Positions 2,925 to 12,504 of a stretch of 20,000 nucleotides of DNA are shown here, one piece after another. The notes beneath the pieces are model-generated. The model made no database searches. It worked only from the letters and a program-made list of their open reading frames with translations, and was not told the DNA's origin. Position numbers and translations under genes: made by a program. Positions within the stretch are counted from its first letter, which is position 1, and each line of letters starts with the position of its first letter. The stretch is from an uncultured virus (IMG/VR IMGVR_UViG_3300014208_001449) (lineage: Duplodnaviria; Heunggongvirae; Uroviricota; Caudoviricetes): IMG/VR virus record IMGVR_UViG_3300014208_001449, one strand, 5' to 3'.

Positions 2925-2991
2925 CCCCCGCCGTTTTTTCAGCTATAGCCTCCTCTCTGTAGAGAGATTGCGTAAGCTACAGAGTCCGAAT

Positions 2992-3198
2992 ATGAACCGT
3001 TTCAACGCCCCTGAAGTCCTCGCGGCCCTCTTCAAGGCACTTGAAGTGGCAGGGCTCGAAGACACGATTTCCCGCTTGAAGCAGTTGGGCGTGCCTGCTA
3101 TCGTCGACAAAGCTTGGCAACAGAGGTCCAAAATGGCGTCTGAAAACATAGCAGACAAAGTGGCGGACCGGTACCTGAAATCTGAGAAAAGGAAATAG
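2992..3198 (+). CDS. small protein with C-terminal KMA...KVADRY tag
   Basis: MNRFNAPEV...KMASENIADKVADRYLK; alternative TTG start at 2968. Confidence 0.7.
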   Translation: MNRFNAPEVLAALFKALEVAGLEDTISRLKQLGVPAIVDKAWQQRSKMASENIADKVADRYLKSEKRK

Positions 3199-3202
3199 CA
3201 CC

Positions 3203-4255
3203 ATGAACCATACCGCTCGTATCACCCCTCCCTCTTACCTTGTGGTTTCTGAGCCTACGACTGGCAAAGTGGTCTTCAAGACCCCGACGGCCATCAAGAC
3301 GATCGGAGCCATCCGGCACAAGGCTGAGGAGCTTCACGCTCAGTATCCTGGCATGGCGGTCCATGCTCTCGGCACGGAACGAGGATTCGGGGCGGAGAAG
3401 CTTGCCGCAGCTAAACCCGTGGGCAAGGTCCAGAAGGCTATTGTTGCCTACCTGGAAACCAAGAACGACAAGTCGGCCGACAGGGACGAGTTGCTCCGGC
3501 ACTGTGGGCATGGAGTTCACTTCGGTGCCTTTACCGACTCCCTCGACGTACTGGCAAAGAAAGGTCTGGTCAAGATGAAGGACAAGAACGTGACTCTAGT
3601 TACAGAGTCGGATAAGACCGCGTCGCGGGTGGCCTCTCGGTTTGTCCAAGCCCTGATGCCCTATCCGACCATGCGGACCCTGGGGAACTTCAAGGACCCC
3701 AAGCTGATCAGCCGTCTCGTGAATGACCGGACCGACGTGGATTGGATCACGGACCCCCGTAGCGAACTGTACCAGCAGAAGTCGCAGGACAGCGGTTTCC
3801 TGGAGTACACGGTACCCAGTGTCAAGAAGCAGTTCGCAGAGGTGAATGACCTCATTCGCGAGGCTACTACCCGTTGCCTGAAACGCTTGAAGGCTTGGCA
3901 GAAGCTGGCCGTCCCGCAGTTCGAAGAGCTGGGCTACACCGTGAAGCTAGGGAAATTCACTTCCGTCGTTCAAAGTTCGGATTGGGCTGACTACGATTTC
4001 CGGCAGATCATCAGCATCACAGACAACGTGTTCGGCGGCACAGAAAACCGACACCTGACCTGGGGGTTCCGAGACTTCGTGTACCTTTCGGAGTACCAGA
4101 ACCACTGGACCAGTTTCTCCTCAGACTCGCAGATCGATGCACCTCTGACCTTTGCGGCTATGGTGCTCTCTATGAAAGAGCATCTTCAGAAGAATGCCTG
4201 GAAAGAGTTCATCGCTTGGCGTCAGAAGAAGATGACGGAGAAGGGGGTCGCTTAG
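3203..4255 (+). CDS. 350 aa multidomain protein: winged-HTH-like segment, KTASRVASRF tag, C-terminal domain of unknown function
   Basis: Long ORF; VQKAIVAYL...DELL...SLDVLAKKGLVKM resembles a wHTH; internal DKTASRVASRF. Confidence 0.8.
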   Translation: MNHTARITPPSYLVVSEPTTGKVVFKTPTAIKTIGAIRHKAEELHAQYPGMAVHALGTERGFGAEKLAAAKPVGKVQKAIVAYLETKNDKSADRDELLRHCGHGVHFGAFTDSLDVLAKKGLVKMKDKNVTLVTESDKTASRVASRFVQALMPYPTMRTLGNFKDPKLISRLVNDRTDVDWITDPRSELYQQKSQDSGFLEYTVPSVKKQFAEVNDLIREATTRCLKRLKAWQKLAVPQFEELGYTVKLGKFTSVVQSSDWADYDFRQIISITDNVFGGTENRHLTWGFRDFVYLSEYQNHWTSFSSDSQIDAPLTFAAMVLSMKEHLQKNAWKEFIAWRQKKMTEKGVA

Positions 4256-4258
4256 ACC

Positions 4259-4522
4259 ATGCCCAAGAAAGCCCCGCAACCCGTCAACCTGAAAAAGAAA
4301 GACAACCTCACTGTCCACCTGGACTCATCCATCCCTAGAGATACTTCGGCCCAAGCTCTTATAAATCGCCCTGGCTCCGGCCCTCATAAGAACCGCGAAA
4401 AGGACGTGGCAGAGGGACGTTCCAGGAAACCAAAGCATCCAAGACGATGGCTTGATAAAGAGGCACACATGGATGAACTGATTGGAAGGATTGTCTCACG
4501 GCACTCTAAAGAAACCGCCTAG
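4259..4522 (+). CDS. basic protein with GxH...RKxKH motif (ArfA-like pattern) and KEA...RIVSRH tag
   Basis: GSGPHKNREK...SRKPKHP; DKEAHMDELIGRIVSRH. Confidence 0.7.
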   Translation: MPKKAPQPVNLKKKDNLTVHLDSSIPRDTSAQALINRPGSGPHKNREKDVAEGRSRKPKHPRRWLDKEAHMDELIGRIVSRHSKETA

Positions 4523-4533
4523 AAAGGTAACCC

Positions 4534-4689
4534 ATGCCCAAGACTCCCAAGCCTGCGAAGCTACGGGACGAAGACCTAGACACTGGAACCTTTCACATCA
4601 AAACAGCCGCTCCGAGTGAGCGGGTCATGAGACTCTTCTCTTCGAAACAGACAGAAAAGAAACCAGTGAAACGATCCAGAGGCCGGTAA
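4534..4689 (+). CDS. 51 aa basic protein with KTA...RVMRLF tag (not in ORF track)
   Basis: GAAAGG RBS, ATG 4534, MPKTPKPAKLRDEDLDTGTFHIKTAAPSERVMRLFSSKQTEKKPVKRSRGR*, TAA 4687-4689. Confidence 0.65.
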   Translation: MPKTPKPAKLRDEDLDTGTFHIKTAAPSERVMRLFSSKQTEKKPVKRSRGR

Positions 4690-4698
4690 CGTTAGTCC

Positions 4699-4727
4699 TT
4701 GACAGCCCCTATCTCCCACGCTAATCT
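4699..4727 (+). promoter_or_regulatory. sigma70-type promoter
   Basis: TTGACA (4699-4704), exactly 17 nt spacer, TAATCT (4722-4727). Confidence 0.7.
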
Positions 4728-4733
4728 TTCTTC

Positions 4734-4908
4734 AATTCCCGTTGGGCCCCTGCTCCGTTGCAGCACAGTGCCTCGCGGGAGGTTGCTTACTGGGCCGAAC
4801 GGTGCCCGAAGCGACGTCGGCTGGCTACATCTACCCGAGGCTAGCAGTCCGGCGATGGGGACTAGGAGGTGCTCGTTTCGATGATGAAAACGGGCTCCTT
4901 CCTTTTCT
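4734..4908 (+). ncRNA. candidate structured non-coding RNA of unknown family (~175 nt)
   Basis: Lies between a consensus promoter and a terminator-like hairpin; multiple complementary segments; no convincing + strand ORF. Confidence 0.55.
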
Positions 4909-4909
4909 T
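4864..4909 (+). terminator. intrinsic terminator-like hairpin
   Basis: GCTCGTTT (4871-4878) / AAACGGGC (4888-4895), closed by AGGA/TCCT, followed by TCCTTTTCTT. Confidence 0.5.
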
Positions 4910-4939
4910 GTTTCATTCCCCCAGACTTTGGCGTATACA
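4910..4939 (+). promoter_or_regulatory. SigB/SigF-like promoter GTTT-N17-GCGTAT
   Basis: GTTTCATTC-N11-GGCGTATACA; same layout as 6345-6374; upstream of ATG 4972. Confidence 0.55.
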
Positions 4940-4971
4940 GGAAACGTAAAGGGTCTACCTAGGGACTTGTC

Positions 4972-5337
4972 ATGTTCCGCGAGACAACCATCGAAGAGTA
5001 CACACAGGGCGGGTGCCACCTGTTAGCCAAAGAGATCCTCCGACTCCGGCCTGACCTAAAGGCTGGGATTCTTTCTCACAGGGGGGATGCAATCGGAGAA
5101 GCCCACTGTTTCGTTATCCTGCCCGAGAGTGAGTCCCTCGATACCCTTGTTCTCGACGTAACAGGGAAACAGCCCCTCTACAAGCTGAAAGACGAATGGG
5201 GTTGGTTGAAACACGTGTCTGTCTTTGATTCCCGCGAGGAATTCGAAGAGGAGGTTTCAGATTGGTGGGCTCCGGATATCCCCAAGCCTTCGGTTCGCAG
5301 AGTCGCAAAGGTTCTACTTCAGTCTGTTGGGCTCTAA
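4972..5337 (+). CDS. putative transglutaminase/papain-like fold protein (Cys-His-Asp triad)
   Basis: YTQGGCHLLA...AHCFV...VLDVTG pattern. Confidence 0.65.
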   Translation: MFRETTIEEYTQGGCHLLAKEILRLRPDLKAGILSHRGDAIGEAHCFVILPESESLDTLVLDVTGKQPLYKLKDEWGWLKHVSVFDSREEFEEEVSDWWAPDIPKPSVRRVAKVLLQSVGL

Positions 5338-6344: not shown

Positions 6345-6374
6345 GTTTCATTCTGGTCCGGTCCGGTGTATACA
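6345..6374 (+). promoter_or_regulatory. SigB/SigF-like promoter GTTT-N17-GTGTAT
   Basis: GTTTCATTC-N11-GGTGTATACA at the head of the long rightward gene run. Confidence 0.55.
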
Positions 6375-8955: not shown

Positions 8956-8966
8956 AGGAAACAAAA

Positions 8967-9227
8967 ATGGCAAAGACCCAGTGGCACGACATAGAAGAGG
9001 ACGAGAGCTGCAGGCGTGTCGGTGGATTCATGCTCAAAGCCATGAAGGACCCTGAAGCCTCCGGTTGGTGGTCACACGTATGCTTGCCGCAAGTCATGGG
9101 AGAATTCAGAGCCGTAGCAACGAAGTACCCGCTCCCTTCCAAAGAGGTGGCTCAGGCGGCTTGTGAACAAATGGCCCGAGAGATGGCCCGGGATGTTCTG
9201 GACGACTTGAACGGTCAGGAGAGCTAA
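8967..9227 (+). CDS. domain A family paralog 2
   Basis: AAGGA RBS; MAKTQW...RRVGGFML...PSKEVAQAACEQMAR...DL. Confidence 0.8.
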   Translation: MAKTQWHDIEEDESCRRVGGFMLKAMKDPEASGWWSHVCLPQVMGEFRAVATKYPLPSKEVAQAACEQMAREMARDVLDDLNGQES

Positions 9228-9228
9228 C

Positions 9229-9528
9229 ATGGCAAAGACCACCTGGAACCGCACCATCGATGACGCTGCCAGTATCGGACGGGTAAAGTTCACTCGACGA
9301 GTCGGGGTTTTCCTGTTAGAAGTACAACAGATTGCCTATCGTCGAACCCCAGAATCACCCGAGATGTGGAGCTTTTCCGTGAGTCTAGACACTCTCAAGG
9401 CACATGCCAGCTTGATCACTGGCGGGATGGCCTTCGACACCGCCGAAGAGGCCCAGGATGCAAGCGATAGATTCGTAACGTCTATTCTGGAACATGCACT
9501 TGAACACCTGAAGGGAACCAAACCATGA
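9229..9528 (+). CDS. domain A family paralog 3
   Basis: MAKTTW...RRVGVFLLEV...DTAEEAQDASD...ALEHL. Confidence 0.8.
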   Translation: MAKTTWNRTIDDAASIGRVKFTRRVGVFLLEVQQIAYRRTPESPEMWSFSVSLDTLKAHASLITGGMAFDTAEEAQDASDRFVTSILEHALEHLKGTKP

Positions 9529-9785
9529 CCAAAAACCCCTGGCAGAAAGAGTTCACGCCCTACCCCTCGAATCGGTTTTACCGCCACGTCGGGCGTTTCA
9601 TTCTAGTGGTTGAATACTATCTCGGGGGAACTGGCTGGTGGGCCAAGGTACTCTTGAAGAATACCTTGGAGAACACCACGATCCACACGAAAAACCAGAT
9701 TCCCTCCCAAGAGGAAGCTCAGGCGGTCTGCGAGCAGATAGTCCGAGAGCTTGCCCAAGAGGCCCTGGACGGCTTGAACGAGTAG
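9525..9785 (+). CDS. domain A family paralog 4
   Basis: ATGA overlap; MTKNPW...RHVGRFILVV...PSQEEAQAVCEQIVR...ALDGL. Confidence 0.8.
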   Translation: MTKNPWQKEFTPYPSNRFYRHVGRFILVVEYYLGGTGWWAKVLLKNTLENTTIHTKNQIPSQEEAQAVCEQIVRELAQEALDGLNE

Positions 9786-9799
9786 GGAGGCGAACAGAG

Positions 9800-9985
9800 T
9801 CAACCGAAGAGGTTAGGATTGAACCCTGTGTCAATCCCGTCAAACTCTCCGTCTTTAGGTAGCATCTCTGTAAGACTCTCAATGCAACTCTCCAGGTACT
9901 TCCGGCGGTCGGGATCCGTCTCGTGCTCCAAGCGGGCTTTTATCACTCGGATTGTGTCGAGGTAGTTCTGGCTGTACAGCCGCAT
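9800..9985 (-). CDS. 61 aa hypothetical protein, opposite orientation to its neighbours
   Basis: GGGAGG RBS 9 nt before ATG 9985; MRLYSQNYLDTIRVIKARLEHETDPDRRKYLESC... Confidence 0.65.
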   Translation of the reverse strand: MRLYSQNYLDTIRVIKARLEHETDPDRRKYLESCIESLTEMLPKDGEFDGIDTGFNPNLFG

Positions 9986-10042
9986 CTGGGGGCGCCTCCC
10001 GAAGTGTGTCCCCACTTTACTCCCGCGAGCCTGAAAATTCAA

Positions 10043-10070
10043 GTTACAAAATGCCGCCGGATAGGGTATA
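10043..10070 (+). promoter_or_regulatory. SigB/SigF-like promoter GTTA-N17-GGGTAT
   Basis: GTTACA...GGGTATA with the same spacing as 4910 and 6345; upstream of ATG 10110. Confidence 0.5.
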
Positions 10071-10109
10071 GATACATACAGGCGGCCAAGTGGGAGAGAG
10101 GGTTGGAGC

Positions 10110-10349
10110 ATGGACGAAGAGCCTAGGTTCTGTAAAGACTGCCGATTCGTAGAAGCGGGATGGCAATTCCAAGACCGGCTTCGGGTAGCAGCACGACAGA
10201 GCAACCCTGGAAACCTTAGTTGGTGGGGTCCCTACTGCTACAAGCTTTGGCCTCATCCTGTTTTTGGGCCGGACTCCGAAATCGGAGCCTACTGCACAGT
10301 ACGCAATGCTCGTTTGGACTGCCCGAGTTTCGAAACAAAGGAGGAATAG
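10110..10349 (+). CDS. domain C Cys-rich protein
   Basis: FCKDCRF...PYCYK...YCTVRNARLDCPSFE. Confidence 0.75.
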   Translation: MDEEPRFCKDCRFVEAGWQFQDRLRVAARQSNPGNLSWWGPYCYKLWPHPVFGPDSEIGAYCTVRNARLDCPSFETKEE

Positions 10350-10352
10350 AAA

Positions 10353-10577
10353 ATGGTCTTCTGTAAGTCCTGCTGTTACATGCAGCCAAAACGCGCAGTT
10401 TTTGTTCCCAGTTCTCAGACTCCCTACGGGATGGAGCTTGGCTACGGCCCTGGGGAACCAGTCTGCCAAGCAGAGGGTTTCGTCGACCCTATCACAGAAC
10501 AGCCTGCCCAAATTGAGTGCCGTATAAGGAATCTGTTCTGCGACTGTCCAGACTTCAAACCTACAGAAGTGGGTTAG
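10353..10577 (+). CDS. domain C Cys-rich protein
   Basis: GGAGG RBS; FCKSCCY...PVCQA...ECRIRNLFCDCPDFK. Confidence 0.75.
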   Translation: MVFCKSCCYMQPKRAVFVPSSQTPYGMELGYGPGEPVCQAEGFVDPITEQPAQIECRIRNLFCDCPDFKPTEVG

Positions 10578-10581
10578 CTTC

Positions 10582-10701
10582 ATGAACGGGCTTTCTAGCG
10601 TCGTCTTGTTCGTAATCGTCACGGAGTGCCTTTTCTCCCGCGAAGAGGCTAAAAAGGCATCCCTGACGCTTACCTAAGCCAACCTGAAAGGAACACCGTA
10701 A
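10582..10701 (+). pseudogene. decayed domain A gene remnant
   Basis: Frame reads ...FSREEAKKASLTLT*ANLKGTP*, echoing the EEAQ motif and the HLKGTKP tail of paralog 3. Confidence 0.4.
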
Positions 10702-10703
10702 CC

Positions 10704-10955
10704 ATGGCACAAACCGATTGGCAGTCCACTATCACAGGAATCGACACCGTCCGGCTCGTAGGCCCCTACCGCCTGGGAACCTACAAGATGAACAAAGAGG
10801 GCCAGGACAAGTGGTTCGGAGCGGTGGAACACGTGGCTTCCGCTGGGATGCTTCACCTCAGCAACTACTACAATACGCAGGAAGAGGCTCAAAAGGATTG
10901 TGAGGACTACGTCAGGGCTCTCCTGGCCCAGGCCCTTGTGGAACTGGACGGGTGA
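10704..10955 (+). CDS. domain A family paralog 5
   Basis: MAQTDW...RLVGPYRL...NTQEEAQKDCEDYVRALLAQALVEL. Confidence 0.8.
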   Translation: MAQTDWQSTITGIDTVRLVGPYRLGTYKMNKEGQDKWFGAVEHVASAGMLHLSNYYNTQEEAQKDCEDYVRALLAQALVELDG

Positions 10956-10961
10956 GCAAAC

Positions 10962-11222
10962 ATGAAAACTGCTTGGCAACGGGACCGCAGTTCCCACAAC
11001 ATGAGCGACGAAGTTTGGATTCGCAGCGTGTTCCCTTTCTACCTTGAAGTCTTCTTTGTCCATGAAAATAAATGGGAAGGGAACGTTTCGGACGGGGCTC
11101 TGAAATATTCCGCCAAGACCCATCCGTCCAAAGAGGAAGCCCAAGCAGCCTGCGAAGCCCGCACTTGGGAGATAATCCGGCACATGGTCTTAGATTTAGG
11201 CGGAGAAGGAGCGGTGCTATGA
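10962..11222 (+). CDS. domain A family paralog 6
   Basis: MKTAW...RSVFPFYLEV...PSKEEAQAACEARTWEII...DL. Confidence 0.8.
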   Translation: MKTAWQRDRSSHNMSDEVWIRSVFPFYLEVFFVHENKWEGNVSDGALKYSAKTHPSKEEAQAACEARTWEIIRHMVLDLGGEGAVL

Positions 11223-11731
11223 GCAATGCTTCTGCTTCTGCTACTGCTTCGCAGTGGGTCGAGACGGTCTACGGTGCCTATCGCCGAAAGTTCGGGCCCA
11301 TCCACCTTGAGGTTCTGAGCCACCTCGCAGGGAATTGTTGGCTTACGGAGTTCGACACAAAGCAGTACCCCACTCGGGAAGAGGCTCAAAAAGCCTGCGA
11401 GGATTACGCAAAGGCTTCGGTACAGGAAATCTTGACCGACCTGGGGGATAACCAGCCTTCATCAACCCTAGTTGCAGCCAGATTTGCTTTCCTTGACCAA
11501 CCTGAAGCTATCACAGTCACGCTCCCTAAAGGGGCCTGTTTCATCCCCGACGCCCGTGGGTTCCCTACTGAAAAGTGCCCTTATATGCTCTCGGGTTCCT
11601 ATGGGGATGCTGACTTCTGCGGGCGCCTTGCCGGTTTTCCGGAACTGGTCGGGCCCGCTCCCGTAGAACCCTGCCCTCTGGGCGGAACAGAGCATCCTCT
11701 GACTTGGGAATTGAAAGGAACACAACCATGA
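11219..11731 (+). CDS. domain A + domain B fusion
   Basis: ATGA overlap; RRKFGPIHLEV...YPTREEAQKACEDY; VTLPKGAC...KCPYM...FC...CPL...LTWELK. Confidence 0.8.
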   Translation: MSNASASATASQWVETVYGAYRRKFGPIHLEVLSHLAGNCWLTEFDTKQYPTREEAQKACEDYAKASVQEILTDLGDNQPSSTLVAARFAFLDQPEAITVTLPKGACFIPDARGFPTEKCPYMLSGSYGDADFCGRLAGFPELVGPAPVEPCPLGGTEHPLTWELKGTQP

Positions 11732-12504
11732 AACAATGGCAACCGAAAAACCCAAACAACCCCCTTCACTTCATCCGGAAAGTCGGACCTTTCACCTTGG
11801 GAGTCGAATTCTACTCGGCTGAAAAAAGAGGCTGGGATACCGAGACAGGTTGGGACGTTCGAGTCACCGAAGGGGATAGTAAAAACAACTCCCTCGGGAT
11901 CTGTGGCCCCTATCCCTCACTGGAAGAAGCCCAGGTCGTAGCCGAGATGCTGGTGGATAACCGCTTGGGCTCCCTCCTGTCAGAAGCCGTGACCGGACAG
12001 GGAATGCCCTGGCAATCCACAGCATCGCAGAAGGACAAAACTCTTCCTGCCCACGTCAGAGAGGTTGGACCTTACCGGTTGGAAGTAGAACAGTACATGC
12101 ATCACTTCCCTCAAAGCAAAGCCCTGAGGTGGCGTGTTGTCAGTCCGCAGGTTCCGGGGTATCACTGGCCGATTCTAGAAAGACACGTTCCTGAGAAGGC
12201 TCAGGAGTTGGCGGAACAGGCAACACAGAAGCTCATTCAGTTGACCAGAATCGAACTCGGGTTCCAAGAGGGCATGACTATCCTTCTACCGCCAGGGTAT
12301 TGCAAAAGCACGAACCAGGGCATCGAAGTTCGTTGTCCCTTCCTTGTTTCCGTCGAGGAGTGTTTGGATTCCTGTGACCTGTCCAACAAAGAGGGCTACT
12401 GCGAGGGAGAGACTGAGGCTCTGGCTCAGCACTGCCCCCTACGGGAACCCGACGAAGAGATGGTCTGGGAACTCAAGAGAAAGAAAGGAACCCGTCATGC
12501 CTGA
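11728..12504 (+). CDS. domain A + A + B fusion
   Basis: RKVGPFTLGV...YPSLEEAQVVAE; REVGPYRLEV...EKAQELAE; LLPPGYC...RCPFL...SCDL...CPL...MVWELK. Confidence 0.8.
   Translation: MKQWQPKNPNNPLHFIRKVGPFTLGVEFYSAEKRGWDTETGWDVRVTEGDSKNNSLGICGPYPSLEEAQVVAEMLVDNRLGSLLSEAVTGQGMPWQSTASQKDKTLPAHVREVGPYRLEVEQYMHHFPQSKALRWRVVSPQVPGYHWPILERHVPEKAQELAEQATQKLIQLTRIELGFQEGMTILLPPGYCKSTNQGIEVRCPFLVSVEECLDSCDLSNKEGYCEGETEALAQHCPLREPDEEMVWELKRKKGTRHA

Follow-up and report, generated by a model that had tools for sequence, protein, structure and literature searches.

Locus and gene setting

The window, the 20-kb stretch of phage DNA analysed here, is part of a 189,794-nt contig (G+C content, 54.7%); the analysis thus covers 20 kb of 190 kb. 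It is made up of densely set short genes, most of them not assigned to a family, and among the 22 window proteins scanned, clear Pfam matches were found only for an AAA ATPase and a DUF3307 protein. The best cultured-phage match of the AAA ATPase was in Myxococcus phage Mx1 (31% identity; E value, 4e-33), and in Mx1 the ATPase gene likewise closes a run of small genes ahead of a convergent block. We infer that the contig belongs to a large phage that is distant kin of Mx1. The locus is a gap between two short plus-strand genes, with the following features:

4534..4689, plus strand: gene for a 51-aa basic protein, the final gene of the upstream plus-strand block 2968-4689
4699..4727, plus strand: sigma70/sigmaA-type promoter TTGACA-17-TAATCT; putative start at A4734, from spacing
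4736..4781, plus strand: predicted hairpin H1 with an asymmetric internal loop and apical loop 4754-4759; helix probabilities 0.92, 0.99 and 0.70
4782..4815, plus strand: predicted hairpin H2, adjoining H1; apical loop ~4796-4803; helix probabilities 0.97 and 0.90
4816..4853, plus strand: predicted hairpin H3, adjoining H2 and the weakest of the three; helix probabilities 0.54-0.84; z -0.4
4755..4802, plus strand: possible loop-loop pairing of 4755-4759 with 4798-4802 (five Watson-Crick pairs, from sequence)
4864..4909, plus strand: terminator-like hairpin H4 (4864-4903) and U-rich run; z -3.4, 0 of 300 shuffles
4881..4949, plus strand: 22-codon ORF; its AGGAGG (4864-4869) is buried in H4
4910..4939, plus strand: promoter of a second class, GTTTCATTY-N11-GGYGTATA, serving the downstream gene; second copy at 6345-6374
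4972..5337, plus strand: gene for a 121-aa protein, phage YunG-like by language-model features (a lead)

The 51-aa ORF is a called gene with a codon score of +0.07 and is the only member of its protein cluster. The YunG-like assignment of 4972..5337 comes from families carried by 11-51% of the cluster members, and structure models of the 121-aa protein showed a weak resemblance to the transglutaminase/cysteine-protease fold. This is the one gene between the gap and the convergent genes.

Elsewhere in the window, three successive proteins encoded at 2968-4522 share a short motif, R/K-V/I-A/V-x-R-aromatic, which is also present in a protein of the IMG/VR record G262 (see below), and a possible late promoter lies at ~2935-2963, ahead of these genes. 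One product of this stretch, an 87-aa basic protein (4259-4522), is weakly DUF7230-type phage-like (language-model score under 0.9, a lead only) and may be ArfA-like. The region 8964-11945 contains paralogous short genes with a common repeated segment of 33-45 nt in at least four copies.

Coding potential of the gap

Codon scores and gene calls both indicated that the interval 4734-4909 is non-coding. The 74-aa minus-strand frame had a codon score of -0.10 bits/codon, the 61- and 94-aa plus-strand frames had -0.22 and -0.16, and a 62-aa minus-strand frame had -0.20. For reference, 31 window genes had a mean of +0.17 and a lowest value of -0.03 (leave-one-out), and 198 shadow frames had a mean of -0.14 bits/codon. 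None of the six candidate products overlapping the gap was present in the protein collection, in which all three flanking proteins were found. If the interval were a 74-aa minus-strand gene (4692-4916) and the hairpins accidental, the open frame across the whole gap would be accounted for, but the codon score of this frame is under those of all 31 reference genes, it was not called, and it had no Pfam or PHROG match. Moreover, it has no spaced ribosome site, since a G run stands directly against the ATG. We regard a minus-strand gene as highly improbable.

The sequence-only reading had stated that the gap holds no credible sense ORF. The gap is indeed non-coding by score, but a 22-codon sense ORF at 4881-4949 had been overlooked. 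A perfect AGGAGG at 4864 is followed by two ATG codons, and the transcript could be the mRNA of a 22-aa peptide that is silenced by its hairpin-buried ribosome site, in the manner of a leader peptide or a type I toxin. However, 11 nt separate the ribosome site from the start, the codon score of -0.18 is shadow-frame-like, the ORF was not called and the peptide is, by inspection, too short and too polar for a membrane helix; its Phe/Leu content follows from a frame that crosses the U run and the next promoter. Because of its codon score, the long spacing and the overlap with the next promoter, the ORF is probably incidental, and we give a peptide-encoding mRNA little chance.

The TTGACA/TAATCT promoter

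A perfect TTGACA, a 17-nt spacer and TAATCT were found exactly where the sequence-only reading had placed them. The promoter lies 10 nt past the stop codon of the upstream gene, at the head of the non-coding gap. Its -10 box matches the consensus in three of six positions and keeps the TA---T core. The pattern TTGACA-N17-TAnnnT occurs once in the 20-kb window. A generic promoter/terminator scanner run on the window listed neither this promoter nor the H4 terminator.

In Mx1, a relaxed pattern gave 27 promoters, all on one strand, versus 4.75 in shuffles. A gene start lies 21-41 nt from the promoter at 25 of these sites, and the other two have a nearby start on inspection. Here, unlike in Mx1, the next gene is 245 nt beyond the TTGACA promoter. 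Most of the 27 sigma70-type promoters of Mx1 (OR576727.2, 69,000-121,000, minus strand) have a GATC-containing spacer motif, which is likely an operator. In G262, a closer relative than Mx1, the pattern TTGAC[AT] occurs about as often as in shuffles (8 sites against 6.95), which counts against a stand-alone RNA. One TTGACA promoter of G262 precedes two tRNA-like genes, which counts for a stand-alone RNA, since it suggests that this phage group puts RNA genes behind such promoters.

Predicted fold of the element

In the predicted ensemble of 4733-4912, H1, H2 and H3 follow one another without intervening bases and are followed by a 10-nt linker, H4 and a U-rich run. The first helix begins 2 nt past the putative start, and the hairpins tile the interval as far as the U run. 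Prefixes were predicted to fold in the same order: one ending at 4785 gave H1, one ending at 4815 gave H1-H2 and one ending at 4855 gave H1-H2-H3.

All 15 sequence segments that we checked (the hexamers, the spacer and 12 paired segments) are at the positions given in the sequence-only reading, but the long rod that had been assembled from them did not hold up. With its three helices enforced, the energy was -65.6 versus -73.8 kcal/mol, which corresponds to a probability of 4e-7, and two other long-range closings, when enforced, had probabilities of 1e-5 and 3e-5. In these models, three abutting hairpins are preferred over the rod. A second, mutually exclusive set of pairings had also been proposed. 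An alternative pairing does exist, but it is merely a local re-pairing of H3 (4820-4845 plus 4846-4863) with an ensemble probability of 0.05; the TGCT/AGCA pairing listed with it is helix 4751-54/4762-65, with a pair probability of 0.29. The complementarity of the H1 and H2 loops was equalled or exceeded in 94 of 1,000 shuffles, which speaks against the loop-loop pairing.

The proposed comparison of folding energy with shuffled sequences had a divided outcome. The whole molecule was barely above dinucleotide shuffles (4730-4909; z -1.36; 16 of 200 as stable), and with H4 excluded (4734-4855) z was -0.9 and 55 of 300 shuffles were as stable. Local hairpins stood out more clearly: with the pair span limited to 60 nt or less, 4734-4912 had a z of -2.7, and 2 of 300 shuffles were as stable. 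This value would come about eighth among 452 contig-piece windows, several coding windows being equal or better. The global folding energy (z -0.9 to -1.5) is weakly above chance and counts against a stand-alone RNA. Two groundwater DNA runs contain the stretch, and one of them may be the source sample; no variant of the element was seen in either, the second showing zero other letters over 4720-4902. No RNA run was listed among those containing the stretch.

The terminator-like hairpin H4

The claim that the gap ends in a hairpin and a pyrimidine tract is supported by H4, a strong hairpin followed by a U run. H4 is the sole hairpin clearly above shuffles; taken alone, the 3' hairpin had a z of -3.8, with boundaries chosen after the fact. 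No T run was found on the opposite strand of H4. Like a Rho-independent terminator, H4 has a G+C-containing stem and then a U-rich run on one strand; it differs in being long and bulged and in being missed by the scanner, and a terminator accounts for only the last 45 nt of the element.

The interval could be the ordinary 3' end of the upstream plus-strand operon, with H4 terminating its transcripts and insulating the next promoter, the TTGACA motif a chance occurrence or weak, and H1-H3 incidental or mRNA-stabilising hairpins within GC-rich spacer DNA. H4 alone is clearly above shuffles, as this explanation would have it, and the remainder (4734-4855) is matched by 55 of 300. Furthermore, no convincing plus-strand terminator was found between the stop codon at 4689 and H4, and therefore upstream transcripts should cross the region in any case; in G262, the promoter pattern is no more frequent than expected by chance, and no conservation was found. 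However, a perfect -35 box, 17-nt spacing and a TA---T core stand exactly at the head of the gap, a pattern present in 6 of 200 shuffles when it may fall anywhere in the 20 kb, and H1 begins directly behind the putative start. An operon 3' end is a serious alternative that we nevertheless consider unlikely.

Alternatively, the RNA could be a cis-acting leader, a riboswitch/attenuator or an HK022 put-like antiterminator, that governs read-through of H4 into the YunG-like gene. Promoter, structured leader, terminator and gene are the classic layout, and putL, as described in PMC9378689, consists of two stem-loops right after an early promoter. In a full alternative fold, 4807-4818 pairs with the 5' arm of the terminator, and this is the minimum-energy fold for the prefix ending at 4890. 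However, such sequestering of the terminator arm was reached by 28-40% of 120 shuffled leaders (prefixes 4884-4890) and is gone by 4900, and the terminator-less fold is 8.7 kcal/mol above the best fold. The two-state switch put forward in the sequence-only reading is no better founded, the alternative fold being no better than in those shuffled leaders. In addition, the downstream gene is served by a promoter of its own and stands alone before convergent genes, and no riboswitch family of Rfam matched. A cis-acting leader is, in our view, rather unlikely.

A second promoter class in front of the downstream gene

The downstream gene had been credited with a promoter motif of its own at 4910, and this motif recurs: GTTTCATTC-N14-GTATACA at 4910 was found again at 6345. 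The motif, ACGATTTCA GTTTCATTY-N11-GGYGTATA, differs from the sigma70 consensus. A scan of IMG/VR with the motif gave 11 matches, five of them in G262, a 257-kb record; a looser form of the motif gave 35 IMG/VR loci, among which G262 alone had repeats. Indeed, G262, which has the same G+C content, contains 20 copies, mostly just 5' of a ribosome site and start codon. The GTTTCATTY-N11-GGYGTATA promoter motif marks this phage group and finds relatives that were missed by the protein searches tried. Recognition of the second promoter class probably depends on a sigma factor or an activator of the phage. Since the YunG-like gene has a promoter of this class, it could be transcribed without the TTGACA promoter. 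Of the pyrimidine run at 4900-4909, just a portion is accounted for by the upstream consensus of the motif.

Two further regions of G262 were observed. The minus strand of C1 26178-26341 (L244) carries, in tandem, a pair of tRNA-like genes preceded by a TTGACA/TATAGT promoter. Both have 9-nt anticodon loops and are found only at relaxed thresholds, neither default ARAGORN nor the Rfam gathering scores having picked them up; they are possibly frameshifting tRNAs or nuclease decoys. At C1 ~228830-229045 (L254), a 215-nt intergenic stretch lies between divergent promoters and has several near-perfect hairpins, one of ~21 bp. It may represent a further RNA or else a palindromic DNA site, and it has no likeness to the 4734-4909 element.

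Searches for homologues

A blastn search of the element against 50,697 phage records gave no match, and a search against plasmids gave no credible match (three records with matches of 26-33 nt; E value, 2). Three DNA patterns, searched as exact matches in IMG/VR, gave zero matches each, and one pattern gave none in GTDB contigs. One pattern had eight loci in JGI metagenomes, at which the best model scores (9.8 bits) span the pattern alone. When 301 genomes from a single phylum were searched at the DNA level, eight had one short match each. The upstream regions of the 20 second-class promoters of G262 contained no counterpart; the top local alignment (z 3.3) was in coding DNA.

We also searched with a covariance-type model, R1, which consists of this single sequence and its fold and is insensitive because it was built from one sequence. 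R1 matched one of 30 AAA ATPase-related records, at 11.5 bits and with many broken pairs (30 of 81 loci listed), and gave one 8.6-bit fragment on Mx1 plus record G002, one 9.3-bit fragment on G262 (a record that is 49% complete) and none on 19 records with single promoter-motif matches. On bacterial genomes, it matched 1 of 5 and 1 of 151, neither credibly. A match of 20.9 bits was rejected, as it is without H1 and H2.

The neighbouring proteins had no relatives in IMG/VR, their 90% clusters containing themselves only, and no match by tblastn against phages; the downstream protein had five HMMER relatives, all weak or partial. Since the neighbouring proteins are singletons as well, the absence of RNA relatives says little, and since the patterns were exact and the model was made from a single sequence, the negative searches show only that no close copy was seen. 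As no homologue was found, neither covariation nor conservation stands behind the stand-alone RNA reading. In PMC10690425, a comparative ncRNA class is defined by covariation among at least three distinct homologues, and because at least three matching regions are required, a singleton falls outside this virus-wide screen. In general, singletons are invisible to comparative screens that need at least three homologues. Two short motifs of the element were not found in six of the supplement files of PMC10690425.

Comparison with known RNAs

Rfam 15 gave four matches in the whole window at E values up to 5, all far under threshold, and two snoRNA matches in 4690-4930 at E values up to 10 (14.5 and 10.8 bits versus 58 and 40). 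At the gathering thresholds, the element belongs to no Rfam family, be it tRNA, 5S, SRP, RNase P, tmRNA, Y RNA, a riboswitch, a ribozyme or a CRISPR repeat. This agrees with the earlier failure to match the element to tRNA, 5S, SRP or riboswitch cores. We also considered FMN, fluoride and ZTP riboswitches, HDV-like and hammerhead ribozymes and the end of tmRNA as possible likenesses and dropped them, none being supported by Rfam.

6S RNA forms a long irregular rod with a central unpaired bubble that mimics an open promoter; it binds the sigma70 holoenzyme and templates pRNA. Like the candidate, 6S RNA (RF00013) is ~175-185 nt long and has its own promoter and terminator. However, the candidate has neither the long rod nor the central bubble in the predicted ensemble and no Rfam match, and the 6S-like polymerase decoy of the sequence-only reading was given up on this account, each of the three long-range closings having the very low probability given above. 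A literature search for a phage-encoded 6S RNA with a central bubble returned no paper. Y RNAs have a Ro60/Rsr gene nearby, and no Ro60/Rsr Pfam match was found among the 22 window proteins. ARAGORN predicted zero tRNA genes, none at relaxed settings of 95-80% and one minus-strand call only at 75%, and without a tRNA-like module or an Rfam match the suggested Y-RNA-like mimic also fell away. Sponges of CsrA/RsmA (CsrB, RsmY/Z type) have several GGA motifs in hairpin loops; the candidate has just three GGA, each paired in the best fold, and was rejected as such a sponge.

Base pairing with other transcripts was examined within the window. The longest complements elsewhere in it are 10 nt, and five loop/linker segments compared with 36 window gene starts showed no excess pairing (23-87% of shuffles as good). 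Since nearly all bases of the predicted RNA are paired, with no obvious unpaired seed, and the window holds no long complements or excess pairing, action through shape is favoured, given a transcript.

According to PMC10914365, the small ncRNA candidates of phages phiKZ, PAK_P3, YuA and LUZ19 were mapped as transcripts and are conserved within the genus. They are 100-200 nt long and structured, with a start site at one end and an early terminator at the other, like our candidate, and they often lie upstream of a gene, as it does, with function mostly unassigned. The candidate differs in being predicted from DNA alone, in having no relative found and in the separate promoter of its downstream gene. 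By analogy, it would work most like these promoter/terminator-bounded Pseudomonas phage RNAs. According to PMC9378689, putL of HK022 has two stem-loops in ~70 nt just behind the early promoter, and put RNA suppresses termination via the beta-prime zinc-binding domain. In architecture, the candidate is alike in its tandem stem-loops right behind a promoter with a terminator downstream; it differs in having three hairpins over 118 nt and no long early operon downstream. Racrs, RNA anti-CRISPRs that consist of a solitary repeat unit (PMC10651486), are likewise intergenic, promoter-proximal small phage RNAs, and the CRISPR repeat library described there has 17,823 repeats. H2, a hairpin of 34 nt, has the length of a CRISPR repeat; no CRISPR-repeat family of Rfam matches 4690-4930, and the single short matches that eight of the 301 genomes contain are attributable to chance.

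A candidate stand-alone small RNA

The sequence-only reading had taken the element for an independent transcript. A promoter, a non-coding interval, a terminator-like hairpin and a separate downstream promoter favour this view, but the folding energy is weakly above chance. Taken singly, no reading fits the locus better than an independent small transcript. We think it somewhat likely that the promoter yields a short RNA, a count that includes the leader reading. A genuine small non-coding transcript is probably made here; it falls into no recognised family, and its predicted fold is unlike the one first proposed. The explanation that we tentatively put forward, at somewhat less than an even chance, is a small RNA expressed early from the phage genome as a transcript of its own, whose fold would let it serve as a decoy or scaffold for protein binding.

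According to this explanation, host sigmaA RNA polymerase would start an RNA of ~175 nt (~4734-4909) at TTGACA/TAATCT early in infection. During transcription, the RNA may fold into the abutting hairpins H1-H2-H3 of the computed structure, possibly locked by a kiss between loops 1 and 2, and would be released at the putative intrinsic terminator H4. It would then work by its shape, as a decoy or scaffold for a host or phage protein and not as an antisense RNA; action in trans and a decoy function are what we infer for the product. The next gene would be transcribed apart, from the second promoter class, of which the recurrence of the motif is an observed fact. It is a long shot that the RNA founds an undescribed class of RNAs of large phages, in which a loop 1-loop 2 kiss would lock three coaxial, abutting hairpins and the product, made by host polymerase at the very start of infection, would be a structural decoy for a host ribonucleoprotein or an anti-phage sensor, within a phage group that has unusual tRNA-like genes with 9-nt anticodon loops as well.

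The element is a reasonable candidate RNA, not a demonstrated class. What is known of phage small RNAs comes largely from a handful of model phages. If this one is transcribed and folded as predicted, it would be an RNA-only early function in a large, almost unstudied phage group.

A structured 3' element behind a bacterial regulator gene

The highest-scoring R1 match, at 23.9 bits in a bacterial genome (G030), is a common terminator and not a homologue: the loop and 3' arm of H4 resemble a bacterial hairpin-plus-T-run behind a gene of this genome, and a model of the bacterial 3' element scored unrelated terminators higher (27-33 bits) than the phage RNA (17 bits). In five related bacterial genomes, the bacterial element itself (G030, L189 1500-1660, and L192-L195) is present as a conserved 3' structure downstream of an HTH-receiver regulator gene that looks planctomycete-like. 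It belongs to no Rfam family and shows two-sided changes in 8 of 45 pairs. Between the loop of the first hairpin and the loop region of the third, 6-7 bases are complementary, and a terminator follows.
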